Assembly (NCBI GenBank): GCA_039621445.1
Contig: CP154954.1
Location: forward strand, 23,324,954-23,388,953
Length of the DNA: 64,000 bases
Origin: Euglena gracilis
Lineage: Eukaryota
Reading direction: 5' to 3'
Every line of letters starts with the position of its first letter. The first letter of the stretch is position 1. A program made the translations under genes and the position numbers. Positions 11,124 through 40,987 of the stretch are shown here, one piece after another. Under the pieces are notes generated by a model. It did not search any database. It was not told the DNA's origin and worked only from the letters and a program-made list of their open reading frames with translations.

Positions 11124-13597
11124 TCCCCCTCCCAGAGCTACGCCTGATTTCCTTCGTGGACCAGGAATTCCCAGGTCCAGTCAGGATATCTGACGCTTCC
11201 CCGGTGGGGTTCACTGCTACTCCATTCGGTGTCTCTCCTTTCCGCTAAGTGGCATCCTGCCAAATCCCAAAAACGCGCAAAAGGTTAGCCGCGTTTCGCG
11301 GTGACCTATTAGTCGTTTTGGCTTAGGTGGAGTGTGAAAAAGCCCACTGTGGGAAACGGGGCTGGCAGGTTTCCTGACAAAGTGTCCCATCCACCCACTT
11401 TGGGTGTGCCAAAGGAACGCGGGGTTGGTCAAGCGTTTTCGCTGAAAACCTGAGGGGAGAGTTGTGGAAGTTGGGGGGCAGGCTCCTATCCTGGTCATAC
11501 CCGGATAGGGCTCCTAGGCGGTCATATCTGCACTAGAAAACAAAAGCCTACTTACAAAACCGACTGCCGGCGACAGCTTTGCAGGGGTGGGGGGGAAAGT
11601 AGGGGTGAGAGGGGGGCTGGCTTATGCCAGAACGTAATTTTTCCTGTCTGGCAGCCTTAAGCGGCCTTATTGGCCGAAAAGTGACAAGTTGGCCTATTAT
11701 TACGGCGTGTGCGCTGTGTGCTGTGGGTCTCTTAGCGGCTTTCCAGGTTTCCCGGCTGCCAAGGTCTTCACAGCAGTAGCTCCTTCACGACGCAATAAGA
11801 GGCGCTTACCTCTTGCAGACGGTTTCCGTCCGCATGGCCATTGGTAGAGGTTGTGGCGGGGGGGGGGGGGGGGCTCTTGGATGCATCCATCCAGAGCGCA
11901 GAGTGTGTGACACAGACCCAGGTTCATCCCAGGACTGTTTAGCGATTTCCGCTACCAGTGTATAGTGTATGAGTCTCCTGCAGTGTCCAGGCTCCATGAA
12001 GGCGCTTACCTTACATGCTTTCCAACCGCCAATAATCATGGCGGGAGTCCAGGGGATCTTCCACCAGGACCATCTGGAATTGTGGTGGTGGTGGCCTGTC
12101 CACAAGGCAGGTTTCTGGCAATTCGTAGTCAAAGTCAGGTGCCATCCAGTCCCGAACCCATCCTTCGGGGACTGTGTGCTTGGTTGCACTCGCTCTTTCC
12201 GCGAGGAACCATTGCAGCTTCGCTCAGAATTTCCTGGGTAGAGTGGCTGGCCAGATGAAGTGATTCATCCGTGGTGATTAGCTGACACCTGCGGGCCATT
12301 CCCTGTGCGGAAGTCAATTGGCATGTGATACGCACGTTACGAGCGGACTGTATGGGTTCGTAATACGGCCCCAAGCCAGTCGTTCCAGGTTATCCCGTGG
12401 TTTTTGGGTGGCCATTGTGGCAGGCACCAGCGACCGTTTCGGTCCTGGTTTGTGAACAGGCGGAAAAATATCTTTTCCCTGTCCGCTGTCTCCCAGAGGT
12501 AAGGTAATCTTACCCCTGCTTCCTTAGCGGCGAGACGTATAGCCCCACTGTCGATCTGTCACCCACGGGCCATTCCCGTGTGGCGGTAGTCGTCAAGCTT
12601 GAGGTTGGGGTACTTGAAAAAGTCCTTGTACTTTTTGTGCAAGGTGGAGTACTCATCCAGTGGCTTCTGGGCACTTGGCACGATTGTGCGAACTGCGCCT
12701 TCCGCAGTTTGCCAGAAGGTACCTCGAAGGAAGTTGACGCAGAGTCGTGGTACATTTGTGCCATCTCGCTTGGTGTAGCTAAAACTGTGCTTGTGGGTCC
12801 AACTGTCCACGCACTTGGCGCATACCAAGGCGGCACAGTTGGTGATGTATACATCCTTGTGGAACGATTTCCGCTCCACAGGGTTGCACACACGGCCGAG
12901 GGGTAATCACAACTCAGGTGCACTGTTATACATCTTGTGGCATACGGTGTAAAGCCACACAAAACGGTTTTCTGTCGTTTTGTCGATGAGGAATTCCTCA
13001 CCGAAGTATTGGGCAAAAACACGGGGGGATCTGGAATTGTAGTAATTCCAGGTCACGTTCTGATCAAAGGACCACTTTCGGCCCTGACAGAACAGTGGCT
13101 CAATCCACCGGTTGAAACAATGGTTTGTCCTCAGTTTGTGGTCGATCATCATGTACCTGTTTTTCAGGTAATGAATCTCAGGATCATCCTGACTGACCGC
13201 GTTCCAGTCGATAATGACTTCGTCTTCCGAAGGTGTCTCAGCTGTTGAGGCGCGGGATTTTCCCTGCCCCTTTGGCGAAGGTTTCGGCTGTGAGGTTTTC
13301 CCATAGCCGGATGATGTGACGTGCGTGAATCCTTGTCCCGAGGTTGATCCCCGAGAAGAGGATGCAGCACTCTGGCCGCCAGCAACACCACCGCCTTTCG
13401 GTGGGGGCTGATCACCAGATTTCGGTGTGGGCTTGCAAGGGGCGGCGCCCGCCTTTGTTTTTGCCGGGGATTTCGGACTTCCGGTTTCCGGAGTATCTGA
13501 GGGCCGCCGTTCGGCGTCGCGCTTGATCGCCCAGGTGCGTGGTGACGCTTGGGACGGGGGTCCTCTCCCCGACGCCGAGCGTCGTTGACCTTCAGCA
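11124..13597 (-). pseudogene. 3' accessory region of copy D (frameshifted C-terminal part of the accessory ORF)
   Basis: ~11625-13597 is a diverged homolog of ~13606-15595 (ORF 12907-13710 vs 14902-16095). Confidence 0.8.
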
Positions 13598-13699
13598 GAG
13601 CTTAGGCCAGAACATAATTTTTGCTGTCTGGCAGCCATAAGCGGCCTTAGGGCCGAAAAGTGACAAGTTGGCCTATTATTACGGCGTGCGCGCTGTGTG

Positions 13700-16600
13700 C
13701 TGTGCGTCACTTAGCGGCTTGCCAGGTTTCCCGGCTGCCAATGTCTTCACAGCAGTAGCTCCTTCACGACGCAATCAGAGGCGATTACCTCTTGCAGACG
13801 GTTTCCGTCCGCATGGCCTTGGGAAGGGGGGTGGCTTGGGGCGGGGGGGGGGGGGCTCTTGGATGCTTCCATCCAGAGCGTGGTACACAGACCCAGGTTC
13901 ATCCCAGGGCTGTTTAGCGATTTCCGCTACCAGTGTATATATATATATATATATATACAGTATATGGATGTCCAGACTCCATGAAGGCACTTTCCTTGTA
14001 TGAGCCTGGTTATGCCGTTTCGGCATTACATCCGTCCCAGACGCCAATAATCATGGCGGGAGGCCAAGGGATCTTCCACAAGGACCATCTGGAACTGTAG
14101 TGGTGGTGGCCTATCTACGAGCCAGGTTTCTGGCGATTCGCATTCGAAGTCAGGTACCACCCTGTCCCGAACTCATCCTTCGGGGACTGTGTGTTTGGTT
14201 GCAGAACCTTTGCAGCTTCTCCCATAATTTCCTGGGCAGAGTGGCTGGCCAGATGAAGTGATTCATCCGTGGGTACTTGGCTGACACCTGCGGGGCATTC
14301 CCCGGGTGGAAGTCAATTGGCATGTGATACGCACATTCGGCGCGGACTGTATGGGGTCGTAATACGGCCCCACAGCCAGTCTTTGCAGGTCATCCCGTGG
14401 TCTTCGGGTGGCCATTGTGGCAGGCACCAGCGACCGTTTCGGTCCTGGGTTGTGAACAGGAGGAAAAAATCTTTTCCCTATCCGCTGTCTCCCAGAGCTA
14501 AGGTAATCTTACCCCTGCCTCCTCCGCAGCGAGGCGTATAGCACCACTGTCGATCAGCCACACACGGGCCATTCCTGTGTGGCGGTAGTCGTCAAGCTTG
14601 AGGTTGGAGTACTTGAAAAAATCCTTGTAATTTTTGTGCAAGGTGGATTTTTCCTCCAGTGGCTTCTGGTCACTTGGCACGATTGTGCGAACTGCGCCTT
14701 CCGCAGTTTGCCAGAAGGTACCTCGAAGGCAATTGACGCAGAGTATCTGTACATTCATACCGTCTCACTCGGTGTAGCTAAAATAGTGTTTGTGGGTCCA
14801 ACTGTCCACGCACTTGGCGCATACCAAGGCGGCACAGTTGGGGATGTATACATCCTATGGAACGATTTCCGATCCACAGGGTTGCACACATGCACGAGGG
14901 GTCATCCCAGGTCAGGTGCACTGTTATACATCTTGTGGCATACAGTGCAAAGCCACACAAAACGGTTTTCCGTTGTTTTGTCGATGAGGAGTTCCTCACC
15001 GAAGTATTGGGCCAAAACACGGGGGGATCTGGAATTGTAATAATTCCAGGTCACGTTCTGATCAAAGGACCATTTTCGGCCCTGACAGAACAGTGGCTCA
15101 ATCCACCGGTTGAGGCATTGCTGTGTTCTCAGTTTGTGGTCGATGATCATGTCCCTGTTTTTCAGGTCATGAATCTCAGGATCATCCTGATTGACCGCGT
15201 TCCATTGGATGATAACTTCGTCTTCCGAAGGTGTCTCGGCTGTTGAGGCGCGGGATTTTCCCTGCCCCTTTGACGTAGGTTTCGGCTGTGAGGTTTTCCC
15301 ATAGCCGGATGATGCGACGTGCGTGAATCCTTGTCCCGAGGTTGATCCTCGAGAAGAGGATGCAGCACTCTGGCCGCCAGCACCACCACCGCCTTTCGGT
15401 GGGGGCTGATCACCAGATTTCTGTGCGGGCTTACAAGGTGCGGTGCCGGGCTTTGATTTTGCCGTGGCCTTCGGACTTCCGGTTTCCGGAGCATCCGAGG
15501 GCCGCCGATCGGCGTCGCGCTTGCTTGCCCAGGTGTGTGGTGACGCTTGGGACGGGGGTCTTCTCCCTGACGCCGAGCGTCGTTGGCCTTCAGCAGGGGT
15601 TTCCCGAGCCGAGGGTCGTCCTACGCGTTCCTTCGCGGCTTCCGTGGGTTTCCCAGGGGTAGCCGTGGGGGATGGTGTAGGTGTAGGCTTGGCCTGCGCA
15701 CTTCGCGCTGGTTGCGTCTGTGGTTGGGGCATGGACGTCTGCTCAGCCTGTTTTTCAGGCGCCGGTGTCCGTGTACCCGGGTGATTTGGTGCAGTGGCTG
15801 TGTATGTGCGCTGTGGTGCGGGTTCATCCAGTGCCTCGGCTGGCGCTACCGATGTTGATACAGGTTCATCCCGTACTGGCACGGTTGTTGTTGTCTCCAC
15901 TGCGATTGCTGTCTGTTCGCCGTCCGTCTGTGTCGCTTCCGACACCGGTGGTGGCGCCGCCGCTGGGGGAGGTTCATCCTCCACCATGGCTGTTGTGTCA
16001 TGTGTGTCTTCCGTCGGCTGGGCAGCTTCCGCCGCAGCCGTGTAAGAACTGGCCGCAGTGCCACGTGGAGTGACAACTGAGATCAGTGATCGCAAACCAC
16101 CGAGTACCGTCCGCCCAGCGAGGTGCGCCGTTCAGGTTCTTCACCTGAAGTGGGCTCCTCCGCTGGCTCCGCTGTCGACGGTATTTCCCCGGAAACAGGG
16201 AGCTTGAGGCGTAATACCTCAGGCGTGTGGGGTACCGTCTCTGGCGGGTTTTCCCGCGGAGGTGTCGGCACACCTGTCGTACTCAGTGAGTTGGGTGAGG
16301 TTTGGACAGGTGTCATTTCACCTGCCGGTGATCCTGGGCGCTGGGCCGTTTCTGCCACAGTGTCCAGCATCACGACAGATGGGCTACGGGTTTCCCGTTC
16401 CGGGGGTTCCGCTGGCTGAGGTTCATCTTCGGCCATGGGGACCTCATCTTCCTCCTCCTCCGCTTCCGGACGGGAGTCCTCTGTGTGGAGTTGTGCTGCA
16501 GTACGCGGGTCTTTTCCGCTTCTGTAGCACCCTTGTGCATCTGACAGGCGGTAAAAGCTTATACTTTCACTCCTATCAGAGTTGGGGTATGGGGGCGGCC

Positions 16601-19411
16601 ACGACGCTCTCACCCAGCTTCCGGGTGGAGGTTGCGGCTCGTCCTCGTTGATCAGGCAGAGGTCTTCCCACTGCGATCGAAGGTTCCATCCCATACTCTG
16701 CTCTCCTGTGTCTTCCAAGAAAGCGGGCAATGGGACCGCATACCGAGTGTGGCTTACCTCGCGTGCTGCGAAGAAAGGTTCGAACTCCTTCCAGTCGAGG
16801 GTATCCCCGAACTGGGTGTCCAGGTGATCCCGCAGGCCGATTTCTGCCTGCTCCCATTCCGGCCGCAGGTTCATCCTGCGTCGGTCTGGGTCATGAGGTC
16901 TGGCGTCCACCTCGGTGTATCCCCGAGGTAACCACTTCCTGTGGATATCCACATCAGTGGTTATCTGTTCCAGGAAATAAATGTAGACTTCCAGGACGTA
17001 GGTAATCCACGCCCTGTGCCAGTACTGTTGTAGCAGAAATATTTTCTGCCGGTGCTGTTTCAGCACCTTTCGATCTTGTGTCCCGATCTGGGGATTCCGG
17101 CACTGATGCAGGATGAATCTCCTGGTCGGCTGACTGCCGGCACTTTCGGCAGTCGGAGGCGGTTTTCCGCGTTCTCCGAAACACCAGAAGTCAGCAATAT
17201 GAAATTCCTTGTAAAGCTGGCATTCCAGTTTGTACCGCTGGGGGTACGCGAGGTCGACGTCCAGCACCTTGAACAGCGTGCCATACATGCTGTCCAAGTA
17301 TACTTGGAGGTTGCGCGTGCACATTACCGCAGCCTGCGCCTGGAGTTTCTCCAGCAGGGGGTAATATTTCCACTGGATTCCCAGTGCTCCGACGGAATAC
17401 ATGTGGTTGAAGATTTCCTTCAACTGTGCTACGAACGTTTCGTCGTCAGGAAATGCTCCCAAACAGTCGGCATACGTATGACCGTTTCGTCGGTAAAGAT
17501 GCCGAAGTCAGCTCCCAGAAACCGGACATCCGGTCCAGGACAATTTCATCCGAATGAGGATATCCCTCAAACACATAAAGTTCGGAACTGTAAAAAAAAC
17601 GTTTGCAGTGATCGTACATACGATTCTGCACCACTTCGAGCACCGCATCCGGTGGTCGGTGGATCACGTTGCTTGCGTGTGTAAACTGCCGGAGATCTTC
17701 GTCGATTTTCGGCCAGATCTCCTGCAGGTAGGTGAATACTACAGTAACGTCATCGTCCTTCTTTTTCGAAGGTTCGGCGGCTTTTCCGCCCTTGCCTGCT
17801 GGGGGTCCGGCAGATTTTCCGCCTTTGCCTGGAGTTGGCCAAGCGGCTTTTCCGCCTTTGCCAGGTGGGGCTTTCCCACCTTTCTCCTGGCCTTTTCCTT
17901 TCCCCTTACCCTTGCCTTTACCCTTCCCCTTACCTTTTGTGTTCGACAGCCATTCGAACGTTGCCCAGTAACCCCAGTATTCTGGGTCTTCTGGTGTAAA
18001 CACAGGGTAATTCACGGATTCCGTGCTTGGCGTTCGAGCAAATTCTTGCTCAGCGTCACCACGATTCGAGTAAACCGGTGCGACTGGGGACGGTCGGGTT
18101 TCCCGACGTGCTCGTTCTGCCGTCACGTCTGGCGCTGGCGGAGCTTCCTCCTCAGCGTCGACGTGCATCGCCGCGGGCGGATTTTCCGACCTCGCCGAGC
18201 GGCGCTGTGGCTGCGGCGTCAGATTTTCCGGGCCGCGGTCACGCTTGCCGGCGGCAGAGCTGGTGGGTCGTGCTGATGGCGCTTCCGCCACAGCAACGTC
18301 CTGCTGTCGCGCTGGTTGACTTGATCGTGATGGAGCTGGGACTCCTGTGAGAGCCGACACAGCAGCGTCATACTGCTGGCGCTCTTCCCGTGTCATTTCC
18401 GCCCGGGCAGGGTATCCCTGGCCAGCGGAAACAAGGGGACGACGTGCTATTTGTCGTTGGATTGTCAAAGCATATTCATACTGTTGACGCTCCTCCTCAG
18501 TCTCGAACGGCCGGCCAGTCCACGGGTTAACGGGTTCATCCCGTGCCGGGGGAACTGGTGCCGCACGAGGCGCTGCCGCGGCTTCCCGCGGACGAGCGCT
18601 TCGGGCAGAGTCAGACGTCAGAGGAGGGTTTCCCTCCACAGGACGTCGCGGGATAGGGTCAGGTATGGTTGGGTGGGGTTGAGGTGGATGCACGTACTGA
18701 TCCCGTGGCATTGGCGCCTCCTGGTGGTAATCCCCAGAGAGGGTGTACTGAGACACAGGCTCCTGCACAGGATGATCCCGCCGGGGCATGCGCTCAGGGG
18801 ATCGAAAAATACTTTCTTTCACACGTGGGTGTCCACTCCGGACAGGTGCTTCCATTGTCTCTTCCTCGGGTAATCCGGGGGAGTGAGCACAAAAATGTGC
18901 AGTGTAAGTGCCAACTGGTGGTACCTGCCGTGCGACCTGTGGCGGGACTTCCACAGGTCACACATGGTAATGTCCGCCGCGAATCCTGAGCGTCCGGGTC
19001 GGTGTAATACACCAGACCTGTCATCGTCACCTGGGTGCACATACACCACCGGGCCGGAGGGGTATTCGCGATGGTCAAAATTTTACGCCAGTGGTCATCC
19101 CACAATGCCTGGGTGAGTTGGTCTGGTGCCGGGTTTGCGCTCATACGCATAACCCGGCTCATCGTCTCCGCCGTGCGGTGGATCATCACACCCGCATACG
19201 GTGGGAGGCGACGAGAGCCTGATGGCTGAGATGGCCGCGCTTCCGCGGACATCTGGGTCATCCTGCTACTGCTGCTGGCTTCAGGGTTTCCCTGAGCTGC
19301 AGTCCGTGCAGGTGGCTGTGTACCGTATCGGTACGCATACTGGTCAGGTTTAGGGTGAGTGGTGGGGTGGTAAGGCGGTCCTCCGCCTGGCTGCCTTCCA
19401 CCGGGCAACAT
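13700..19411 (-). pseudogene. Long sense-strand accessory ORF downstream of pol, split into pieces 18794-19411, 17446-18954, 16083-17462, 14902-16095 and 14498-14758; function unknown
   Basis: Consecutive abutting ORFs in shifting frames; Pro/Ala-rich linkers, a GKGKGK tract, an aromatic-rich globular core and a Cys-rich C-terminus; homologous pieces in copy D. The 3' end is approximate. Confidence 0.65.
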
Positions 19412-19584
19412 GATACCGCCCGGTGTCGGTACGGTGGGATGGTTGTGTGGTCGGTTGTGTTGGTAATGGTAACCGCTTGAGTATGATTTGCTAAAAAGTC
19501 TGCGGAAGGAAAGAATGATAACAATCAATGATAAAAGGAAGAGAAAACAACATGGGTTTCCCATGCGTTCTCAAAAACGTGTCA

Positions 19585-21015
19585 TGGAAACATCAATGTT
19601 ATGCTTCTTGTTCCACAGCTTCCAATATTGCTAGATATACCCAACAAAACTGGTTGCTGGCTCCCAAGTGTCCTCCTCGGGCCCATACCCTTTCCAGCGG
19701 ACCTTCCAAAGGTGCATACCTTTGTCGATTTTGTGATCGATGATTTTATCGACTACAAAGTCGTCCGTCTCAGGTAATCTGGAACGGGGTTTGAAGTGCG
19801 AACACGGGATGGGTTTCCCATCCGGTGGCTACAGGTATGGTTTGAAGTCGTCCATATGAACGTCCTCAACACCATTCGGTAATGCAACCTTGTAACGCCC
19901 GCTGGTACCTAGTCTTTCCAGGATTTCACAGGGGCCGAGACAGAGGGGGTCCAGCTTGGAACACTGCATGCGAGTGCGGCTATTCCGCACCCACACGCGG
20001 TCACCGGGACTAAACACAGGTGACTTGAAATTCTGCAAAAAAGATTTCCGTTTGGTTGCATGAATATCAGTCACGCGCTTCTTGACTGCAGAACGTAGAT
20101 TTTCTACTTCCGCAAACCAGGTCTCGCAACTGACACTCGTTCGGGCGGGTCTCTCCGAAGGGACATCCCCTATTGCCGGAGGGTCCCGTACGAAAATTAA
20201 TTTATAGGGGGAGTAAGGCAAAACCAACCCTGGTAGGGTATTGATATAAAACAAAGACCATGGTAGAACTGATATCCAGTTGCTGCGCGAGTCAGCCAGT
20301 GAAAGGCGAAGCATATTCACGACGGATTTCACGGCTGCCTCGGCTCTACCATTGCCTTTGGGTCAGTATACAATGGAAAAATGTTGCTCGATTCCGAGTA
20401 AACCGCGCAAAGTGGTGAAAAAACTTGAAGAAATCAAATGGTCTTGATCACTCACGATTTCATTCCGTAAACCCATTAAGCAAATAGATTTCTCCAAAAA
20501 TATAGTTGCCAAACTTTGGGCAGTCAACCCTAACTTATAACATGGAATGGCTACAATGTACCCACTCAGCCTGCAGACGACAACAAAAAAAGTAATCGTA
20601 AATTTTGTCGTCCGTTCCTTTGCACGGTTCTAATTCCAGAAAATCCATGCAGAGGGATGTAAAAATGTCAGGGGGTACGGGACAAAAGTCCATCGTACCA
20701 GGGGGGGTACCTCTGCGCGGTTTTACCGCTTGACAAATTTGACACCGTTGCGCTATTCGCAAACAGCGTGAGTAAAGCTCTTTCTCGCTCAGGGTTGTGC
20801 AATACCTGCGGCCCACCAATGAAAGAAGTTTGGGGGCCCCAGGGTGACCGTGGTTGTGATAGCACAAAATCACATCATCAACCAGGTCCTGGGGGATACA
20901 ATATTTGTAACCCGATTCATTGCGAAAAACCAACCGTAAAGGTGAAAGAGTGTAATTGTCCAGCACTTCGCCATTACGAAGTCTGGTGACAATGGTGTCA
21001 TATACCGGGTCACGA
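19585..21015 (-). pseudogene. Integrase (HHCC Zn finger, DDE core) with C-terminal chromodomain, copy A
   Basis: HNHGHPG...CQICQAVK; own translation of ~19780-19585 gives DDFVVDKIIDHKIDKGMHLWKVRWKGYGPEEDTWEPATSF. Confidence 0.9.
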
Positions 21016-22700
21016 CTATAATCCCATTCGCGAAAGAACAGTTGGGAAGGGGACTCCGTGCGTGTAATACGCCGGGGTCCGGACGTGCTTCCACGTCGGC
21101 GCCTTCCGCGCACTGGAGCGACCAGGAATAGTTGTGAAACCGGGAAAAGAATCCAAAAGATTGTCCGCAGCGTCGTTTCGACGTGCGTATTCGTCAGCTT
21201 CCTGACTTCCATGAAAAGTCGCGTCTCCCTCGTCCGGGTTCCCAGGGTAATACCAAGGGGCCCGACTCAGCGGATCCGCTACTGTTTGTGTGTGACCAGG
21301 GGTATAAATAACCACAAGGTTGAATTGACTCAAGCACTCATGCCATCTGCATCGCCTTCCGACCGATGACATGGCCTTGTTCAAATCCTCGGTGTACCAG
21401 TGTTGCATACTCTCATGGTCGGTCTTGACGAGGATCTGGACGAGGCTGCTGGCTACCCAGCTCCGATATTTCTGGAGTATAAGCACGATTGCGTAGGTTT
21501 CCTTCTCGCGTATACTCCACTTGACTTGTCCTTTTCCGTCGTCGCCCTGTAACTTTCTGCTGAAGAAAGCCACAGGTCGGAGCTTATTCGCCGCGTTATG
21601 CTGGCTAAGAACTCCGCCAACAGCGTAATCGCTGCTGTCAGGACATATGGTTTGTACCGGTCCGCGATTTCGAGGACAACATTCTCCAAAAGCAAAACCT
21701 TGATTTTCTCAAGGGCCTCGCGCATTTGGTCATCCCAAATGACTTTGGTGTTGTCAACAGCCCGGTTTTTGAGCTGTTTGGTGAGGGGCACCGCGATTTT
21801 CGCGAATTCCTTCATATAAATCGCGTAATATTGGGCTAATCCCAAAATCCTTTGAGGTGTGTAATAGTTTTGATTACCTCAGGGGTCCATTTCTTAATGG
21901 CTTCGAGTTTACTCGGAGCGGATTTCCGCTGTCCATTGCTGAGGATGCGACCGCAAAATTTTATAAGTATCCGAAACAAATGCATTTTCGCGCCTTTCAC
22001 GTAAAGCACATGTTTTTGAAAAGTGTCTAATACCGCGTAAACATGGTGGACGTGTGTGACGAGGATATCCTCGCTCGATTATGTGGTTGGTGGTGGTGTC
22101 CCCACCAGCACATCATCAATGTGCACAATGGCAAACGGTACATCGCGTAAAACCCATTGTATCATGCGTTGAGACATGGCAGGACCATTCTTAACACCCA
22201 TGGGGAGTACCGTCCATTGGTACACACCCTTGGATGTCACGAATGCCGTGTATGGTTGTGAGTCAGGGTGCAAGTGCATTTGGTGAAAACCGTCCTCCAG
22301 ATCGAAAATTGACCACAACCGGTTTTCCGATTGTGTGGTGATCAAGTTCTCGATCAGGGGGAGCGGGAAGGGATCATCCCTTTTTTGGGAGTTCAGGTAC
22401 CGGTAATCCAGCACCAGTCTCCACTTCTTCTGACCTGAGGGATCTGGGGGTTTAGGAACAACGAATGCCTGGGATGTCCACTCGCTTTTCGAGGGTACGA
22501 TCGACTTGCGCTGAATAAGCTTCTCAATCATTTCATTGAGAGCTTGTTCGCGTTCTCCCGAACAACGAGCAAATTTCCGGTGCATTGGTTTAGCTCCTTC
22601 CTTAAGGTCGATCTTGCAAACACCGAAAGGACCGCGTATCGCGGGGTCGATGTCGCACGCGTATACTGCATTTTCCAGCACACCGTGAAATTCGCGGTTG
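21016..22700 (-). pseudogene. Reverse transcriptase and RNase H, copy A (frameshifted)
   Basis: AFVVPK..KWRLVLDYRYLN, DLEDGFHQ, LPMGVKNGPA, VHIDDVLV; RNase H AFFSRKL..EKETYAIV..VKTDHES..ADPLSR. Confidence 0.93.
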
Positions 22701-22822
22701 ATCCGCGAACAGAATTCGGCTGACTTAGGACGCTGACCTGCACCCTCGATGACTGCGGAAACCACCAGGGTATCCCTGGGGCTACCGAGCTTCCTCGGCA
22801 CCGCGAATTCGGACATTCCGAA

Positions 22823-23222
22823 TGCATCGCAGAAACATACGCGGAAAATGATTTTTTGCAAGGGTGGTAATATTTTACCACAAAAATCCTCAAAAATCGG
22901 TACATTAGTGGGTAAATCCCACCAATGAAAACACACATACCATAGTTGGGTGAACCATTCCGCTTCCGGAATGATGGGTATGAGAATAACTGCACGGGCT
23001 TCATCCCGCAGAATTTTCTCAACCGCACATTCGATAAGTTTTGGGGGAGGGTGCATCCATATCACCGTATCACCCCAAAATTTATCAAATGCGTTGGAGT
23101 GTTGTGACCAATGACGTGGCAAACGGACATGTGCATTGGATGAAAAGGCATCGATTTACAATGCCAAATAAAAAGAATCAGCCAATGTCGCGATTTTGGA
23201 AAACCATCGTTCCAAAATGCGA
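22823..23222 (-). pseudogene. Dam-like (N6-adenine/N4-cytosine class) DNA methyltransferase domain inside pol of copy A
   Basis: IDAFSSNAHVRLPRHWSQHSNAFDKFWGDTVIWMHPPPKLIECAVEKILRDEARAVILIPIIPEAEWF fits the DIRS-MT/phage Dam pattern; in frame with RT; in-frame TAA at 23156-23158. Confidence 0.7.
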
Positions 23223-23689
23223 CATTGACCAAAATTGAAAGCATTCCATACGCGTTTCGCGTATTCATGCACCCGATTGGCGGGTAGGAGTGACGAAACA
23301 CAATGAAGGGATCCACAAACATGCGGACTGTCTTCCACAACCGCAAAGGTTAAACCCAAGGGAGTTTGGACAGGCTGGGGTTTCCCCATTCCGCGTCAAA
23401 TTCATACCAAGTGTACTCGGGATGGTGATTAGGCATAACGCTTTTCGCGTTTCGGAACAACGAGGTTAATCCGCGTGGTTGGAGTACTCGGTGTATCTCC
23501 GCGCATTGCGGGCTACAACCAAGTGTATCATGGCGTGTGGATTCCGTATTCGGAAATGCGATTAGTGTCGGATTTTCAACTAAACATCCACAATCGAAAT
23601 CCGATTGGGTGGAAATTCTCCTGCAGTGCACACATTGGAAGGAAGTGTGATGGTGTGACGGGTGTGCGTGTAAGTGGGTGTCGGTGGCA

Positions 23690-24448
23690 TTAGCCGGTGA
23701 GTCTTGTACAGGTGTGCCTGGATTCGGCACAACTGGTGGGAAACGGAGTGGTGGTGTAGCTGGCGACTACTCGACACCGTACATACTGCAGGCCTTTGGG
23801 CTTTCGTCTTGTAACCCAGTGTAACGGCGGGGGTACCGCTACTCGCTTGCCCTGCCTCATGTGCAACGCATGTTGGTGTGTCATTGGGCAGGGGGAGGCT
23901 TTCTCCGTACCCCGGGTGTGGAAAACGGTTGTTGGTGTGGTGGATAACGGTGTTGCCATTGTGGGTAACGGTGTTGGAGAAGTGGTGGTCATCATGGCGG
24001 ATGCCAACGGTGATGGTGGTTTGGGTGTCAATGAAGTGGTGGGTGCTGTGCGCAAACCGTGGGAGTGGCAATACACAACCAATCGGTACTGGCGTAAAAA
24101 TGGGTATCCCAAAATTACGTCAGACCCGTGAATTCCGGACTCGTAATCCCAAATATTGGTGAAATGTTGTAATTGTGGGGGTTGTGAGTAATGCTTCGGA
24201 ATGATGGGCAAGAGTATCTGGAGCACACATCCCAAATCACCACCACACATGGGGGTGTTATCCGCGGTTGTAATTTTGATCGGTTTCTTGGCGCTTACCA
24301 AGAGCAGGGTCGGTATCAACCCCAGCCGAAAGAGCAGTGCAATGCGACAAACAGTGTCAATTAAAATTTTGAATGCGGATTTCCGCTTGGACAAGTAATT
24401 CCATTGGTGGTACGCAAAGTGAAGGGTCTGGCGGAAATACGTTTGCAT
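23690..24448 (-). pseudogene. Aspartic protease region of copy A (degenerate)
   Basis: KILIDTV (DTG variant), ITTADNTPM, DVILGYPFLRQY. Confidence 0.75.
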
Positions 24449-24641: not shown

Positions 24642-27600
24642 CTACTCCAAGTCCGAACCGGCCGCATAGCCGGCAACGGACTTTTTGGTGGAATAGACGG
24701 AGTTCAATGAGCGCACCGCCATTCGGGCCTCATTAAATTCCCCGTCCGAGGTCTCATCCCCCTCCCTGCCCGAAGCCGGGGTGTCCTCCTCCAAACAAGA
24801 TACCTTGAAACTGACCTTTTGCCGTTTGGAGGAGTTACCACGGTCCTCCCGGCGCTTACCGCAATTTCCGTAGCCGGGCCGGGGGGAACGAGATCTGGGA
24901 CATTTGGATGAGTGGTGGTCTTTGGAACCGCAAAGTGAACAACGGGATTTGTGGCGGGATTCCGCATAACGGGGTGGAACGGTATTCCGTTCTTCTGTCG
25001 AACCGTCGTGGCGAACGGGTTTCCCGTCGACCATGACCGGTGTACCGGGGTTTCCCCGGTGACTCCCGCGAAGTGGATGATCCACTTCGCGAACGAGATC
25101 GTGAAGAGTCGCGATTGAAATCCCGTTTTCGGGTAGGAGGTCCAGGTGACCGACCGCGAGAAGGACGAGTTTCCCGACCATCACGCGATGGGGACTTGGG
25201 CCTACTACCGCTAAAGCGGTTCTCCGAAGAACGTGAAACTCCGGATTGTTGTGAAAACGTCGAGGAACCCGATCCCCGTGAGGAGGGCGAGCCCCTTGGG
25301 CTTCCAATATGCTTTCGCGCATCGGGATTCGGGCATTCCCGAGACATGTGACCAGATTTGTTGCACATAAAGCACAGTTTATCCGCGCCTTGATCCCAAG
25401 AACGCTGATTCCGCGTTTTCGGTCCCGTGGTGGGTGATCTTGGTGACATGGGTGATTTTTGCAACGCATTAACGGCACCCGCAGGGATTCCCGCGGTGGG
25501 ATGCGTTTGGAAAGCGGACTGTATTTGTCCCAAAACTTGTGTGAGCTTGAGTTGCTTTGACACATAATTCCAACGTTCGGCAAGAGTCATCTCATGCCCC
25601 GCCAACTCCTCGCGATGGATATCCTTCACGAGGGATGGTGTGAAATGCAACAAAACCGCATCGAATTGTTCGCGCATTTGCTTCTCACTAAGTTCATCAA
25701 CTTTGGAACCAAGTGCAAACCATTTGGCATACCAAAGGTCGATGGATTTCCATTTGTGATCCGTTGGTACGCATTGTCGCCATTTCTTCGCCAGGGTAAT
25801 CCTGGTGACCAAGCTTGAGTTGGTTGAAGCGTGTTGCTCAACCAGGTCATCGAATGATACGCCATTACGTATCACCAAGTTGCGTGCGCGCTCTCGCTCC
25901 TCTCTCGGTAGGCAATCGATGAATTCCATCTTGACTACCTCGGGATTCGGGTCTTGGGTGGGTCCCTTTAGTGCCCAGTAGTACCTCCAGTCCCCAAAAA
26001 ATTGTCTCCATGTGGTTGGATCCCCGTTCCATTGGGGTTTCACCTTGTTCGCGATTGCGATGGTGCCCTTGAAGTCTCTCTGAGTAACCCGCTGACCCTG
26101 GAATTCCAGGGGTTTGGGTCAGGGTAATTCTTAACACCAAACGCGTTTCGCGGATTTTCCGCTCCATGTGAACCCCGTGCACGATTTCCCGCACCGAGTG
26201 TAGGGGTGGCAGGATTTTACTGCGGGAATTGCGAAAAATGCGGTGAAATTTGCCCGGTGGGGCGGGTTTCCCGCCGAAAACCCGACGGGTGGTCTGGTAA
26301 TCCAGAAACCGTTGGTGATTGGTATGGTCGCGAATGCAACACATGACCAACACCAGGTGTGGGCTGTTGGCTCATTCCTCGTACAAGGTTGGAATTTTGA
26401 ATTTCTTGGTGGAGACCCGAATTTTCGAGCGGGGGGTCAATTTCCCCATCGGAAATGTGTTGTGGAAAGTGGGGTTGCGGTGTGGGCAGATGAAAAGGTG
26501 GTACAATTCGCGTTTTCGCAGGTGGTTGTATCAAATTCGCGGTGGATGTAGGGATTCCTACTCCAGAAATGGTAATTTGAGAACGTGATTCCGGGACATT
26601 TGGAATAGCAACCGCAGCGCTTACCGCGGTGGGTGGTGGCACAACCGGTACCGGAGTGGACATTTTATCCAAACTCGCGGACAAGACATGCACCGTTTCT
26701 TCCAAATGTTCCACCAACTGGAGTTGGCCGCAAATACGGTCAACCTCAGTCTCCAAATGCCTAACGCGTTTGCGGTAACGGGAAAAATCGTCCAAGTGTG
26801 GTAACTTTTCAGAAACCAAGTGTAAATCTTGGACAAGTTGTCCTTGGGACTCCTCCACATTCCGGAGTTGACCCGCAAGCGCTTTTACTGCATTTGAGAC
26901 AATTTGCAATTGGTGGAGTGAATTGGTGGGGGTTTCCGCGGTGGTGTCCGAACTTTCCGCGGTTGGCTTTTCCAACAACGCAGAAATTCGTCCATCCAAC
27001 CGTGAAACCTCGTCTTGCATGGAACGGGCATTCCGATTCACAGATTCCTCAAGTTGAATCAAACTCGTGCAAAATGCTTGCAAGGTTTCCTTGTTGTCAC
27101 CAAGCATTTTGTATAAAATGAGCGAAATTCGGGTGACTCCGATATCCGAGCGCGCGAGATATTGGGAAGTGCGCGAATTTCCGCTACTGTGGTGGACAAC
27201 AAGGTGCAACGGGTTTGTAATTCCCCAATAGCGGCTTGAATACCACTAATGTCGGGAATTCGCTTGGAAAGTGCGGAAATATGCTCCTGCAAACCGACAA
27301 CGGTGGCATTAATACCGCAATGTCCGTTTGCGATTGTTGCTGCGCGAAATCCAACCGTCGTGCGCAATGGGCGATTTTCGCGTGCAGGGTGGTTAATCCA
27401 TCCTGATTTGCGGCACAATGGCAGGATTTCTGCTCCAAGTGTAGGATGTGTTCCTCCAAAACCTGGATTTGCGAACGGGGAACAAAATTTTCTTGCACGT
27501 TCGCCTGAAATTGCTTCAAATGCTCGATTTCCGAGCCAAGATGTAAAATCCGTTGTTGGGCTTCTTTGAAAGAAGTAGTGAGTGTGGCAAAATGCTGAAC

Positions 27601-29366: not shown

Positions 29367-30631
29367 TTCTCGAGCTGATGGTCCCTGTACTGGCACGGTT
29401 GGTTTTGTCTCCACGGCCATGGCGGTCTGTTCGCCTTCTGTCCGTGTCGCTTCCGACACCGGCGGTGGCGCTGCCGTTGGGGGAGGTTCATCCTCCACCA
29501 TGGCTGCAGTATCAGGTGTTTCTTCCACCGGCTGGGCAGTTTCCGCCGCAGCTGTGGAAGAACTGACCGCAGTGCCACGTGGAGCGACAACAGCGATCAA
29601 TGACCACAAACCACCAAGTACGCGTCCGCCCAGCGAGGTGCGCCGTTCAGGTCCTTCACCTGAAGTGGGCTCCTCCGCTGGCTCCTCTGTCGACGGGGTT
29701 TCCCGGAAACAGGGAGGTTGAGTCGTACTACCTCGGGCGTGTGTGGTACATTTCCGGAGGGTTTTCCCGCGGAGGGGGCGGTACGCCTGCCGTACCCAGT
29801 GAGGTCGGTGACAGTGGCACGGGTGTCAGTTCACCTGTCGGCGGTCCTGGGCGCTGGGGAGTTTCTGCCACAGTGTCCAGCATCACCACCGATGGGCTAC
29901 GGGTTTCCCGTGCCGGACGTTCTGCTGGCTGAGGTTCATCGTCGGCCATTGGGACCGTTTCCTCCTCCTCCTCCGCTTCCGGAGGGGATTCCTCTGTGTG
30001 TAGTTGTGCTGCAGTACGCGGGTCTTTTCCGCTCCTGTAGCACCCTTGTGCGTCTGACAGACGGTAAAAGCTTATACTTTCACTCCTGTCAGACTTGGGG
30101 TATGGGGGCGGCCACGACGCTCTCACCCAGCTTCCGGGTAGAGATTGCGGCTCGTCGTCGTCGATTAGGCAGAGGTCTTCCCACCATTGTCGACAATTCT
30201 CGTGCATGCCGTATTCTGCTGTGTCTTCCAGGAAAGCGGGCAGCGGCAACGCATAACGAGGTTGTTTCCCCTTGAGTGCCGCGAAAAACATCCGGAAACC
30301 TTCCCAGATCAGGATCTTCACGAACCGGGTGTCCAGGTGCTCCTGGAGGCCGATTTCGGCCTCTTCCTAGTCCGGTTGCAGGTTCATCCTGCGTTGGTCT
30401 GGATCATTGGGTCTGGCGTCTACCTCGGTGTATCCCCGAGGTAACCACTTTCTGTGGATATCCACATCAGCGGTCATGTATTCCTGGAAATAGATATACA
30501 CCTCCAGGACGTAGGTAATCCACGCCCTGTGCCAGTATTGTTGCAGCAGAAATATTTTCTGCCGGTGCTGTTTCCGCACCCTGCGGTCTTGTGTTCCGAT
30601 ATTGGGATTCCTGCACTGATGCAGGAGGAAT
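29367..30631 (-). pseudogene. Fragment of the accessory ORF from another family-1 copy (probably the continuation of D)
   Basis: Homolog of ~15860-17115 (e.g. SWVRASWPPPYP.SDRSESISFYRLSDAQGCYRSGKDPR). Confidence 0.85.
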
Positions 30632-30935
30632 TGTGTACCAGGCGTATGCTTCTGTCCACTTCCGTTGAGGAAGTTAGGATGGAAGCAGATCCTATTAGGA
30701 TCTCCTAATGGGTGCCCCTTCTCTCTCCACAGGTGGTATTCTTTATATTATTTATTTTCCCCTTTCTTCCTCGGACTTATTATAGTCCGTTATCCTTTCC
30801 CATCCTCTCTCTGTGCTTTGCTTCTCGGGAAGTTGGGAAAAGGGTTTTTCGTTACTCTGATTTTCTCTTCCCTAAGTAGGTCCGCACCAAGGCGAAAGCG
30901 AGGCTTTTTGGGGAAAAGGGAAGATCAGACGTACA
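30632..30935 (+). mobile_element. 5' LTR of family-1 copy B
   Basis: TGTGTACCAGGC...GACGTACA followed by CT-TGGTAGCAGA (PBS 30938-30947). Confidence 0.85.
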
Positions 30936-31222
30936 CTTGGTAGCAGATTAGGTCACGATCCTACACATACAGCCCATACAGAAAGAAACGCTACCAAGTA
31001 TTACACTTGGTAGCAGATTGGTTACAATCCTACGCTGACTGGCAGCGGAGAGCCCCTGCACCGTTATTACACGGTCGCAGCGTCAGCTCCCGGCTTCTAG
31101 TCAACGTCTAAGCAGACGAGCAGGCTCCGGAAGGCTCTGTACGGTATTACCCGTTACATCCCCTCTGGTGCCAGCACAACTGCTTAGTTTTGTGGGTTTT
31201 TGCTGTTTTTGCCATCAGAAAG

Positions 31223-34200
31223 ATGCAAAGCACAGGCCCCAACCATCAATTCAACTATGCCTTATTACAGGCATCATTGCAAGACATTGACCAAGAAACT
31301 GGGGATTGGAAGCTTTTATGTGAAAGTGCTTCCAGTTCCCACGCCGATGAGGCACAATTGGTTCAATTGTCACAATTGCAACACTTGTCGTCATTGACAG
31401 TGGTCGGCGATGAGCCCTCCACATCATCGGCTTCAGAGGCTAATGCGGCCTCTTCCGCACTCACCTTGCCACAACGGGGGTATTCGCCTCTGTCTGCGGC
31501 AATGGTGCAGCTGCGCACACCGGAGAGACCCGTGGTGATTCCGCCACCGGGCTTCTCTGGTGATGGTGGGCTAGAAACGCCGTGTTTCTTTCAACCCCCA
31601 CCCGCTCTTCCACCGGCAAGCCCTTACAGAGCTTTGCCACCACCACCCGATATCGGGTGCTATCCCGCACTACCTTGGCAACCGGAGACTCGCCTAGTGG
31701 TGCCGGAATTCTCCGGTACATCCCAACCCATGGATGACTATGGGAAGGGCACTAGTGAACTCCTCACTGCTGAGGATGTGCAGGATATTGTTGTTCGGCT
31801 TCCAGGGGATCACCCCCTTGTGAGGCAGTTCAACCATGTGCAACAATGCGTTGCAGAGTGTGCAACCGCATTGAACAAAGTGCTTCAGTTTGATGAGGAC
31901 AACCAGAAACATGTCTTCACCAAGCTGGAACACTGCTGGAATTACTTGCAGGAAGTTGGCAAATATTGCCAAAGGAATTTCGAAAGTGCGGGTATTGACC
32001 TTGCAACCTTTCGGGAAACCTTTGACAGAATGTGCCAACAACTCCCGCTAAACTTCCGGCAAATTAGTGAATGCATGCATGAAGCGGAAACGCGGAATGA
32101 CTCCAAGTTTCTGCACTTGCATGACTCACTACAACACCTATCGGGACAAATGGAGTCCTGTTCATCCGCGTTGTTGCATTTGCAACAACAGTTGCATGCA
32201 CGAGATTCCTCGTCTGCAACAACCCACAATGGTGGATTTGTGTCTATGGACCATTTCACCACTTTGTCCGCAACTTTCCATGAATCGCAACACCGCATTA
32301 TGCAGTTGTGCGATGAAACGGAAAAGTTTCGGCAATTGCAGTCACAAGCCAACGAGAATTTTGCTCCCCACACGTATGTGCGGCAGTTGGAGGAGCGACT
32401 TTCCCGTTTGGAGCAGAAAACCTGCTATTGTGACGCGAATCAGGTTGGATTATCAAATCTGAGCGCGAAAGTGGCGGAAATGACACAACGGCAGGATTCC
32501 CTGCAGTTGCAATTGCAATCCGACATTGGCGGGATTAACTCGGCCATTGCGGGTTTGCAACAGAGCTTTTCCGCACTTTCCCACCGAGTTCCGGACATTA
32601 GCGGTATTCAGACTGCTTTTGGGGAACTCCAGACCCGGTATGCATCGGTGTCTACCAAAGTAATGGAAATGCAGTCTATACCTGCAAGTTCCAGTTCTCG
32701 GATTACCGAGAACTGTAATTTCAAGGCATTTTATGACAAAATGCTCACTGGTAATCAGGAAACCTTGCAGGAATTCTGCAACAGCCTATTACGGCTTGAG
32801 GAATCGGTGAATCGGAATGCCCGATCCACCCAAGGTGAGATTACCAGGTTGGATGAGCGGATTTCCGCGTTGTCGGATAAGCCACAACCCGGAAATTTGC
32901 TCGTGGGTACCACAACCGCGTTGTCGGATGACCCTGCACCGGTTGCACCCACTAACACACCAACCAAGGTGACACCACCTTTGCAGATCCTCTCAAGTGC
33001 TGTGAAAGCATTAATGGGACAACTCCAATTATTGGATGAGTCTCACGGGAAACTAGTCCGAGATGTCACCGAAATTTCCGAAAGGATTCCGCATCTGGAT
33101 GACTTTTCCCGTTACCGCAAGCGTATTCGCGCTTTGGAGGATGAAGTTGACTGTATTTGCGGCCAACTCCAACTCGTTGAGCATTTGGAGCAAAGTGTGC
33201 ATGACTTGTCTGTCGGTTTGGATAATGTGTCCAACCAACAGCGGGTTTCACACCGTGATTCGGCAGTATGCATTGCCGAAAATGCGCCAAATGCTCCAGA
33301 TTCGCGTTTCCACAACCCGAATCTGGGTGCACATGCACCACCACCACCCGTGTCCCGATTGTCACAATCCGCGATTCCGCGAATTGTACCACCATTGGCC
33401 TTGTCCACAACCCAAACCCAGTTTTCGGATGAATTTCCCATTACGGGAACCGAATTTTCGGAAAACACGGCGATTCCGCCAAGTCTCCACCAAGAAATCC
33501 ATCATTCCAGGCTTGTGCGTGGAATGAGCCAAACCCGTACACCGGGAGTGGGTCACATGTTGCATGCGCGACATACCCCCACACCGGAGTGTCCCCCTAT
33601 TACGGGTGACCAACAGGGTTTGCGACCGGATTTCCGGTACCAGGATTCACCTTCACCAGAAATTTCGCGATTCCAACAAGAATCCGGAAAGGATACGCTT
33701 GGTGCTCGAGAGTACCCGGGCCCGAATCCACGGAATACCACCGAGGGTCATTGGGTTCCTCAGGAAGACTTCAAGGGCACCATCGCAATCGCGAACAAGG
33801 TGAAACCCCAGTGGGATGGTGATCCAACCACGTGGAGACAGTTTTTCCGGGACTGGGAGTATTACTGGGCATTGAAAGGGCCAACCCAGCACACAAACCC
33901 GGAGGTGATCAAGATGGAGTTCATCGATTGCCTCCCAAGGGATGAGAAGGAGCGCGCACGACAACTCGTGATTCGCTACCGCAGTTCCTTCGACGACCTG
34001 GTGGAGCAATACGCTTCCACCAGTTCAAGTTTGGTCGCCAGGATTACCTTGGAGACCAAGTGGCGACAATGCGCCCCACCCGACCGCAAGTGGAAGTCCA
34101 TTGACCTTTGGTATGCCAAATGGTTGGGACTTGCCTCTGAAGTGGATGAGCTGAGTGAAAAGCAAATGCGTGAACAGTTTGACGCTGTTCTCATGCATTT

Positions 34201-35200: not shown

Positions 35201-36449
35201 GGGAGCCCGAAGTCCGAAGGGTCAGACTCTGGGCTGATGAGCAGGTGGAGGTAGGACGTCATGAACCCTCCCCCCTCTTGTCCATCAGTCTTTTGGGTTA
35301 GTACCCGGAAAATTTTCGGCCTCCACCCACACTCCCCAATTTCCGCTGGGAAAGTTGAGCAAAGACAGAAAGGGTCAAGGAGAACTTGGCAAGAAATCGA
35401 ATTTTGAGCCCGACCTTGCACTGTCCCCAACCCCACGAAACGAGCTCTCCAAGCGGAAACACTTTTCCAAAATTTACACAATTTTTTTAACCCAACGTGT
35501 AAAAATTCATTTTTCACGCCCAATATTTTATTTATACACCCCCCCTTGTGTGTAGGTGATTGGGACGCATTTTGGACAGTGTCCTACCCATCAGTCCCAA
35601 CACCATACACAACCCGCACCTGGCTAAAATTTTCGGGGTACTGGGTTCGGTTTCACAACATTCTTGGTGTTGACGTAAGTTTGGGATAGCCCTGTTACGT
35701 CAGTACCAGCTGGCAGTGGATACCCACTCCTGCTGTTTGCACACAACTCCATTCTCTTCATTGGCCCCCTAAACCCCCCATCACCTGTGGCGTCAACCGC
35801 GACGACCACCAATTTTTCCACACCGTTTTCCAAAACTTTACCCCGTTTTCAACTACACCTACCAACGTTTTCTACACCGGGTGTACCGAGAAAGTTACCC
35901 CCCTGCCCAACGGCACACCAACTTTCGTTCCCCAGGAGGCAGGGCAAGCGAGTAGCGGTACACCTCCCACGTTTCACTGGGTTCCAAGACGAAAGCCCAA
36001 GGGCCAGAAGTACGTACGGTGTCGAGTAGTCGCCCAGCTGCACAAACACCCCGTTTTCCACCAGATGTGTCGATTTCAGACACATCTGTACACCCCCCAG
36101 CAGCCACAAATGCGCATCCCCATTTTTACACACACACACCCCACCAGACCGACATGCGCACCCAGGACAACTACTCTGACACTCCCAACCAATGTGTGCA
36201 CTCAAGGAGAATTTCCGCTTTGCCATGTTTCATTTCTGCATGTTCAGTTCAAAAAACGACACACTAACCCTGATTTTGCGCACAAACAACACTTGGTTAC
36301 GGTTTGCAATGCGCAACCGTACATCAAGTACTCCAACAACGAGGTGTTGCCTTGTTGTTTGGGAAGCGCAAAATCTGTTTCACACACCTTCCACACCTCC
36401 ATCTGGAACGATATGGAATGGGTATGTACCCATTCAGGCCAAAACACTT
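35201..36449 (+). pseudogene. Degraded 5' part of pol of copy B, truncated by the satellite before the MTase domain
   Basis: Inverted homology to ~24640-23380 (e.g. AGGGCAAGCGAGTAGCGGTAC). Confidence 0.75.
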
Positions 36450-40469: not shown

Positions 40470-40987
40470 TGTCCGCGGAACCCGTCTTCGGGGTCCCCGG
40501 CGTAGGATCGATTTTCAATATTTCCGTGGCCGTCAGCCACTCCTGGGTGCGTCGGCAGGTTTTCCCCCGATCCCCCCCGGGGACTGTCCCCCCCCCGCAA
40601 CCCGGAGGGCTCCAGTTCCCGTGGTCTCGGCACACGCCCCACCCTGCCCGGCCCCCTCGAGGGGAACCGGACACACCGAATGCAGGGGGTGGGTGGGCTC
40701 AGGTCCACCCCCCGGAGTGTTTTGGGCTGTTGCTAAGAACGGGGTAAAACCTGGAATTTCCCTGACCTCGGCCCGTGGACTCCCTACTTGCTTTTCCCCT
40801 CCCTGATTCCCCGCTGTGTGCATGCTTGTGCGCGGCAAACCACACCAAACGTTCTTCTTGAACAGCACAGCACACAAATGTCAATTGATGATTTGGGATG
40901 TACAAGTGTGAATTGTTTGCGTAGGTTGAAGATGGGCAGATGGGAAAATGAAAGAATACGGACGAGGAAGACCCTGCAGAGGGGACA
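40470..40987 (-). mobile_element. Probable 3' LTR of C (inner boundary tentative)
   Basis: TGTCC...GGACA inverted termini; near-identical to 55431-55947. Homology continues beyond this point, so the LTR may be much longer. Confidence 0.55.

Follow-up and report, generated by a model that had tools for sequence, protein, structure and literature searches.

On the minus strand of a 64,000-nucleotide stretch of Euglena gracilis DNA (contig CP154954.1, positions 23,324,954 to 23,388,953; hereafter the window) lies a dead copy of a chromovirus-type Ty3/gypsy retrotransposon, whose pol region contains a Dam-like (PF05869-type) methyltransferase-fold domain with a non-canonical motif IV. The order of the element is gag (CCHC), protease (PR), a cysteine motif, the Dam-like domain (DAM), reverse transcriptase (RT), RNase H, integrase and chromodomain, as established from collinearity with a longer relative, P0152 (relatives are numbered with a P throughout), together with Pfam matches of the window itself. 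A preliminary description of the window had proposed that an integrase-type gypsy element here carries a Dam-like or DIRS-type methyltransferase (MTase) domain between PR and RT, and this placement was borne out by the sequence, the predicted fold, the same order in independent relatives, and contigs bridging DAM and RT.

Alignment of the longer relatives to the window by tblastn recovered one collinear pol, extending from 24527 to 19589. The best guide, P0152, is an uninterrupted protein of 1677 amino acids encoded on an 11.6-kb contig and comprises a PR region, a Dam-like domain (residues 430-570), RVT_1, RNase H, Integrase_H2C2, rve (1316-1415), SH3_Tf2-1, and Chromo. Identity between the window and P0152 was 39% in PR, 42% in DAM, 59% in the DAM-RT segment, 71-76% in RNase H, and 53-66% from integrase to chromodomain. 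The gag zinc knuckle (CCHC; minus strand, as are all features of the element) was detected at 25327-25377 with a zf-CCHC score of 22.9 bits (cut-off 20.8). The aspartic protease region at 23879-24370, recognizable by ILIDT and VILGYPFL, was 39-51% identical to the N-terminal PR regions of P0152, P0002, P0004, P0006, and P0008, and gave no Pfam match at E<=0.01 in the studied copy. Between PR and the Dam-like domain, a C-x2-C-x11-C-x-C motif (23560-23640) was found by tblastn at 48-59% identity to P0152 and P0008. This cysteine motif is common to P0152, P0002, P0004, P0006, and P0008, and in part to P0025, and may represent a zinc-binding module belonging with the DAM insertion. The RT occupies 21845-22456, reads HIDD for YxDD, and is interrupted by an in-frame stop at 22079-22081; identity to P0152 was 59% over 23242-21845. 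RNase H follows at 21322-21648 (RT_RNaseH, E 1.5e-19), and the integrase at 19850-20897 consists of an H2C2 zinc domain (Integrase_H2C2, E 4.7e-7), a catalytic core region collinear with the rve of P0152, and SH3_Tf2-1 (E 4.2e-7). A chromodomain at 19625-19759 (PF00385, 41.6 bits, cut-off 25.1) forms the end of pol. No tyrosine recombinase (Phage_integrase) was found in any scanned open reading frame (ORF) of the window. Downstream of pol, long minus-strand ORFs at 16086-17507, 17449-18957, and 18797-19570 had no Pfam match.

Translation of the minus strand reads ADSFYLAL, a stop codon, and then IDAFSSNAHVRLPRHWSQHSNAFDKFWGDTVIWMHPPPKLIECAVEKILRDEARAVILIPIIPEAEWFTQLWY, running on into the RT motifs as far as HIDD. 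Every element of the pattern noticed beforehand, IDAFSS...NAF..FW...VIWMHPPP...AVILIP..EWF, is present in this translation in the same frame as RT, within a stop-free frame of 358 codons (22079-23155) that extends from IDAFSS to the HIDD of RT. In Pfam, this ORF matched RVT_1 over residues 234-353 (E 1.1e-18) and, weakly, Dam (PF05869) over residues 2-70, aligned on profile positions 32-105 of 169 (E 0.001, 19.2 bits). With the upstream part of the domain included and the stop represented as X, the Dam match rose to 24.3 bits (E 2.9e-5) and covered profile positions 23-105 of 169, both scores being below the PF05869 gathering cut-off of 28.1 bits. The homology to Dam holds through the relatives, although the window itself does not reach the cut-off, since a Dam match at E<=1e-3 was obtained for 53 of the 66 relatives in alignment A2 (best 2.6e-12) and at least seven relatives exceed the gathering score (P0013, 31.6 bits; P0025, 37.9; P0026, 39.7; P0037, 29.5; P0046, 31.7; P0087, 49.2; P0134, 41.3). 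When the 135 residues that follow the stop were compared by phmmer with 1.84 billion cluster representatives, the search returned 263 proteins at E<=1e-3, 65 of them at E<=1e-10 and three at E<=1e-30, with the best approximately 50% identical; this number of homologues excludes a chance motif resemblance. The consensus of the family is VDAFAS..N.RLP.YW....DAF...W....LW.NPPF.....V.KI..D.A.GI..VP.W....WF.

The 40 codons upstream of the TAA, to approximately 23278, are still alignable with relatives, which places the TAA inside the domain and gives the domain an extent of roughly 23278 to 22790, or about 160 codons with one stop within. The stop at 23156 reported previously is real, but the domain does not begin there, which corrects the coordinates given before. 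IDAFSS (23138-23155) aligns with VDAFAS of the family consensus, its D and F are nearly invariant, and it forms the beta-1 strand (model residues 42-43) of the structure described below; it appears to be the equivalent of motif I, which binds S-adenosylmethionine (SAM). By tblastn, the window holds a single copy of the Dam-like domain, and its only other RT, at 49320-49865, is 35% identical to that of the studied element. Word-indexed protein searches for the domain, at lengths of 196-627 and 74-237 amino acids, gave no match; P0132, P0028, and P0092 were the sole returns of a protein search with a profile of close fragments. In the ESM Atlas, the nearest clusters were eukaryotic, the few that have a record including Chlorophyta and Preaxostyla, and Dam was present on 14% of the members of one cluster; these observations serve as leads only. 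An Rfam scan of the window gave no match.

An AlphaFold2 model of the domain, built with alignment A2, had a mean pLDDT of 93.6 and a pTM of 0.87. All of its top structure matches were SAM MTases, the best being phage N6-adenine MTases, which establishes a class I (Rossmann-like) SAM-methyltransferase fold; the lack of such a fold, which would have refuted the original assignment, was thus not observed. Among predicted viral structures (BFVD), 17 matches were obtained at E<=1e-3, and the top ones were phage DNA N-6-adenine-methyltransferases (E 1.4e-8 to 5e-6, TMq 0.59-0.70, several at a root-mean-square deviation (rmsd) of 2.6-2.9 A). These small phage enzymes of PF05869, the sole Pfam family matched, are nevertheless only 14-21% identical to the domain, which differs from them in being embedded in a polyprotein, in missing the N-terminal part of the profile, and in having HPPP for the canonical motif. 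Against solved structures, Foldseek ranked PCIF1/CAPAM (6irx, 6irw), the cap-specific adenosine-N6 methyltransferase, first (E 4.6e-4, TMq 0.57-0.60), and the next matches were further SAM MTases. An aligner independent of Foldseek likewise placed PCIF1 at the top (Z 10.4, rmsd 2.6 A over 127 residues), followed by PH1948 (Z 10.0), METTL5 and KsgA (both Z 8.8), T4 Dam (Z 8.4), M.TaqI and E. coli Dam (both Z 8.2), and M.BseCI (Z 8.0), with the aligner's own caveat that Z values of 7-8 are common for any model. The likeness to PCIF1 concerns the catalytic core, identity being 12-14% and PCIF1 being a 700-residue RNA enzyme with WW and helical domains; its motif IV is NPPF. A profile search of PDB sequences returned RT chains only and no MTase. 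Taken by itself the PDB result is modest, and it is the viral-library matches and Pfam that carry the assignment of the domain as a Dam-type (PF05869) methyltransferase-fold domain.

The ranking of solved structures could also be taken to indicate that the domain resembles PCIF1 or METTL5 in function and methylates adenosines in the RNA transcribed from the element, not DNA, since the highest-ranking solved structures are RNA m6A(m) enzymes (10.4 for PCIF1, 10.0 for PH1948, and 8.8 for METTL5, versus 8.2-8.4 for DNA Dam) and PCIF1-like giant-virus proteins occur among the BFVD matches. The negative DNA assay reported in a preprint discussed below (Fernandez-Moreno et al., May 2026, bioRxiv 10.64898/2026.05.21.726589) would fit this explanation as well. 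However, phage DNA N6-adenine MTases matched far better in BFVD (E 1e-8 versus approximately 1e-3 for PCIF1-like proteins), Pfam assigns Dam, and the PDB apparently holds no PF05869 structure, which may explain why PCIF1 ranks first. Furthermore, a Z difference of 2 is small and the difficulty with motif IV described below applies here too, making an RNA methyltransferase a very improbable identity for the domain.

The condition of this copy was assessed along the path guided by P0152. In-frame stops have their first bases at 23158, 22081, 20365, 19831, and 19633, and frame shifts occur at all eight junctions of the nine aligned segments, amounting to at least eight frame changes. The first of these stops is the TAA at 23156-23158 within the Dam-like domain; in relatives, an ordinary residue aligns with it. 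Because of this private TAA, the four further stops in pol, and the frame changes, the studied copy is dead and the locus makes nothing. Contigs of four public runs (X1, X15, X16, and X17) were aligned on 21900-23800 at >=80% identity. Run X1 yielded 15,989 contig pieces on this 1.9 kb (3479 at >=99%, 5544 at 95-99%, 5004 at 90-95%, and 1962 at <90% identity), and the family is thus large and diverse. Contigs aligned on the domain, some of them from RNA-labelled runs, show neither copy number nor transcription, and their depth is not copy number. At position 23158, a letter other than that of the window accounted for 524,993.6 of the 533,844.5 summed depth in X1 (83 contigs) and was carried by all X15, X16, and X17 contigs. 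At 22081, the corresponding values were 245,029.3 of 295,850.2 in X1 and, again, all contigs of the other three runs. Both stops are therefore private lesions, nearly all other contigs carrying another letter. Among the 40 best-supported differences, six more fall within the domain, of which those at 22941, 22992, 23127, 23170, and 23223 are near-fixed and that at 23025 is partial. Three (22941, 22992, and 23127) of the four near-fixed differences that were translated, the fourth being 23170, shift towards the consensus of the relatives, as expected for a decayed copy of a family under selection.

Given that the region is rich in nested and truncated repeats and that DIRS elements carry the same domain, the Dam-like segment might be foreign to the gypsy family, i.e. 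a nested DIRS fragment, an assembly chimera, or a chance resemblance. Several lines of evidence oppose this. The segment and RT lie in a single reading frame. Contigs of four other runs also traverse both edges of the domain without gaps; among the long pieces, record 15 of X15 (22450-23324) and record 22 of X16 (22701-23326) bridge its edges, and record 32 of X17 (22953-23657) bridges the upstream edge with one gap. The segment is thus conserved among copies, with relatives aligning and contigs bridging the junctions. At least nine independent relatives of other origin have the PR-DAM-RT order; DAM followed by RT occurs, besides P0152, in P0008, P0023, P0026, P0037, P0046, P0091, P0126, and P0134, which makes it the architecture of a family and not a nested fragment. 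Together with the 263 homologues and the lack of a tyrosine recombinase in the scanned ORFs, these observations leave a foreign segment scarcely credible, and a nested insertion or chance resemblance is practically excluded. Other placements of the domain were observed among the matches, with P0087 having the order RT, RNase H, DAM, integrase and the copia-like P0100 the order rve, DAM, RVT_2.

Comparison with known systems places the element in a recently described group. In the portions of the Fernandez-Moreno et al. preprint that bear on these elements, 10,030 eukaryotic DAM proteins are reported, 53.9% of them associated with retrotransposons, and among the transposable elements with DAM (DAM-TEs) chromodomain-bearing long terminal repeat (LTR) elements represent 30.9% and other LTR elements 21.3%. 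The same portions claim the first such domains in LTR elements other than DIRS, with five lineages (DAM-LTRs) arising via transfer from DIRS, describe EpiLTRs in which DAM, a DNA methyltransferase (DNMT), and a chromodomain occur together, give Asn-Pro-Pro as present in almost all DAMs, and report that DAMs of transposable elements (TEs) expressed in dam-deficient E. coli gave no N6-methyladenine (6mA). A literature search for gypsy elements with adenine MTases brought up no further paper, and PMC5890265, in its treatment of the subject, mentions Dam-like MTases in DIRS only. In the features by which a DAM-LTR is recognized, the studied element has a Dam-like domain and RVT_1 in one ORF (22079-23155) and an integrase of DDE type, not a tyrosine recombinase. 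The general finding of a Dam domain in Ty3/gypsy is therefore already in print as a preprint, and the studied element is another DAM-LTR. The combination, described earlier as not a known standard part of integrase-type gypsy elements, does exist here, but in view of the DAM-LTRs of the preprint it can no longer be called unknown.

The studied element shares with the DAM-LTRs of the preprint a Ty3/gypsy pol, with DDE integrase and chromodomain, into which a DIRS-derived Dam-like domain is built. Shared as well are the incomplete coverage of the prokaryotic Dam profile by this domain (23-105 of 169) and a host genome that also has DNMT-bearing retrotransposons. In contrast, motif IV reads HPPP here versus the Asn-Pro-Pro of almost all DAMs in the preprint, and, unlike in EpiLTRs, DAM and DNMT are found in two separate families. 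This lineage, HPPP, the cysteine motif, and the PR-DAM-RT position are not mentioned in the Results and Discussion of the preprint, and the words 'protease' and 'inactive' are absent from its text. The MT domain of DIRS1-like elements, as far as it is described in PMC3266345, PMC5890265, and PMC9940879, belongs to the same domain family and has the pattern DxFAS ... DAF..W ... NPPF ... K ... LVP.W..W; those elements, however, have a tyrosine recombinase and carry MT after RT and RNase H, whereas the studied element has a DDE integrase and a chromodomain and carries the domain before RT. A DIRS1-like identity was accordingly rejected, as no tyrosine recombinase was found in the scanned ORFs and the domain precedes RT. 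Capture of a DNA-methyltransferase module into a retrotransposon polyprotein is shared with KnitGypsy-Dnmt3, SymbioDIRS-Dnmt3, and SymbioLINE-DNMT, as presented in PMC5890265, but these DNMT-bearing elements carry a C5-cytosine enzyme of unrelated catalytic chemistry at another position, and a neighbouring family of the window is of this DNMT-bearing kind. Two metagenome loci out of 125 pattern matches, L001 and L002, were considered as copies of the family and rejected, L002 matching RT only and L001 having its Dam-like domain elsewhere. In L001 (292-1707, plus strand), the RT is 63% identical to that of the window and the Dam-like domain (ELFAS ... NPPF ... LVTPRW) lies in the RT ORF just past YIDD; provided that this contig is no chimera, the Dam module has here a third position.

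The principal departure of the domain from its relatives is in motif IV (23042-23053), which by direct translation reads H-P-P-P where most relatives read N-P-P-F. To place this in context, 152 fetched proteins and the window were aligned to the domain profile, giving 154 rows. The first position of the motif was N in 96 rows, H in 27 (window included), C in 11, another residue in 8, and a gap in 12. N is thus present in 96 of the 142 rows with a residue there and H in 27. The canonical (D/N)PP(Y/F/W) is not matched by the window, and because of HPPP the domain was not classed among the canonical, active N6-adenine MTases. Motif IV of amino-methyltransferases touches the amino group to be methylated with its first residue, while its aromatic residue forms a stack with the base that has been flipped out; in HPPP, both the Asn and the aromatic position are replaced. 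METTL14, with the motif EPPL, is a non-catalytic relative of these enzymes, and no amino-MTase with an HPPP motif is known to be active.

The closest library relative is the fragment P0028, with 69% identity over 75 residues; its motif is MHPPP, and where the window has the stop it carries an ordinary residue. P0092, a short fragment, reads MHPPQ. Furthermore, none of the 40 best-supported differences in the contig comparison falls at 23042-23053. Based on these sequence comparisons, HPPP is probably a trait of the lineage and not decay of this copy. Of the preliminary description, therefore, the tetrapeptide itself was confirmed, while decay of this copy as its cause is not favoured, P0028 having MHPPP as well. 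A FastTree phylogeny of the 131 rows with >=80 aligned residues, midpoint-rooted and with support values not inspected, excluded 23 shorter or duplicate rows (P0028 and P0092 among them) and placed the window beside P0001 in clade P0001-P0011, whose members read NPP with I, V, or L in the fourth position. Exceptions within the window's clade are HPPF in P0005 and P0042, HPMF in P0011 and P0152, and YPPI in P0007. Two other groups also depart from the canonical motif, namely a diversified clade reading HPP(D/N) (P0043, P0053, P0059, P0067, P0079, P0083, P0085, and P0118) and a separate clade reading CPPF (P0017, P0029, P0030, P0032, P0034, P0035, P0063-P0065, and P0139). Apparently maintained non-canonical variants, these differ from the near-universal Asn-Pro-Pro stated in the preprint.

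Taken together, the probable reading of the locus is a dead copy of a DAM-LTR chromovirus whose lineage has HPPP, and whose domain keeps its fold and is most likely not a canonical adenine-N6 MTase. In intact copies, the domain would be translated within Gag-Pol beside RT with its fold kept, and would there more probably be a part of the replication complex that binds nucleic acid or SAM but is non-catalytic or altered in its chemistry. This role is put forward tentatively, with a likelihood slightly short of even, and is favoured over adenine methylation of cDNA or methylation of RNA because both key residues of motif IV are lost and the assays of the preprint were negative.

Several observations weigh against the overall reading. 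The Dam score of the window itself is below the Pfam gathering cut-off, and a search for LTRs around the element identified no LTR pair with confidence; the only flanking direct repeat (15869-17118 and 29382-30631, 1.25 kb, 86% identical) contains an ORF and shows neither TG..CA ends nor a target-site duplication. The relatives sharing the motif, P0028 and P0092, are fragments of probably decayed copies, and beyond the 40 best-supported differences lie 380 with less support, such that a minority of copies could carry another motif. The His that takes the place of Asn might still form a hydrogen bond with the target amine. Moreover, the fold is otherwise kept, as are NAF..W and the motif I-like DAFSS, and the family is very large; both facts argue for a domain that benefits the element and could be active. 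Finally, DAM-LTR copies show more 6mA than other LTR elements in three species, according to the part of the preprint concerned with methylation.

Much of this evidence would be accommodated if intact copies encoded an active adenine-N6 methyltransferase despite HPPP, acting on cDNA or the RNA:DNA intermediate during reverse transcription. New insertions would then carry 6mA and sit in permissive chromatin, following the model proposed in the preprint. Conservation of the fold and of the motif I-like and NAF..W motifs, the size of the family, and the 6mA enrichment on DAM-LTRs are consistent with such activity, as is the intact 1677-residue P0152, which keeps the domain with H at the first position of motif IV. 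H in 27 of 142 rows, including the diversified HPP(D/N) clade, likewise looks maintained and not decayed. Nevertheless, the lineage has lost both the polar residue of catalysis and the aromatic residue that stacks, and no HPPP amino-MTase is known to be active. With N-P-P present in almost all DAMs and no 6mA obtained from TE DAMs in E. coli, as given in the preprint, an active enzyme is considered unlikely, and a domain that is non-catalytic or altered in its chemistry is preferred.

In a neighbouring gypsy family on the minus strand, at approximately 46.4-52.6 kb, a C5-DNA methylase (PF00145) was matched at approximately 51159-50953 (25.3 bits, cut-off 22) with the motifs DLFSG ... PPC ... 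ENP. This C5-DNMT lies between the gag CCHC (approximately 51808-51858) and PR (approximately 50337-50465), upstream of RT, RNase H, and rve, in agreement with the proposal that two adjacent gypsy families carry chemically different MTases at different positions. Long direct repeats at 40470-45687 and 55431-61556 (85-98.6% identical) flank the DNMT-bearing gypsy and adjoin arrays of a 91-bp satellite at 36459-40469 (44 copies) and 61555-62922 (15 copies), with 96-98% matches in both. A related element at 30827-36458 (plus strand), 67-77% identical in its 5' half, is oriented head-to-head relative to the studied element. It contains an intact gag-like ORF of 1362 codons with CCHC (31112-35197) and is cut by the satellite at 36459, short of the expected place of a Dam-like domain. 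One of the ORFs downstream of the studied pol enters the 1.25-kb direct repeat, the second copy of which lies upstream of gag. A 2-kb unit is tandemly duplicated at 11620-15596 (87.7% identical), and a 19-bp tandem array of 32 copies is present at 2-608.

Capture of Dam-type methyltransferases by LTR retrotransposons is a recently described route for mobile elements to the host epigenome. To this the locus adds a chromovirus lineage with the order PR, cysteine motif, DAM, RT and with a motif that departs from the supposedly near-universal Asn-Pro-Pro, in the immediate neighbourhood of a gypsy family with a C5-DNMT. Should HPPP hold for young copies, the lineage would bear on the question, left by the preprint of Fernandez-Moreno et al., of whether DAM domains of TEs methylate anything. 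The large HPPP family, its NPP-aliphatic sister clade, and the separate HPP(D/N) and CPPF clades raise the possibility, which we regard as open to considerable doubt, that DAM domains of retrotransposons have evolved maintained non-canonical active-site variants, with a benefit to the element independent of ordinary adenine-N6 methylation, as a pseudo-enzyme or through new chemistry or a new substrate. If true, such variants could explain the lack of 6mA activity of TE DAMs in heterologous assays.

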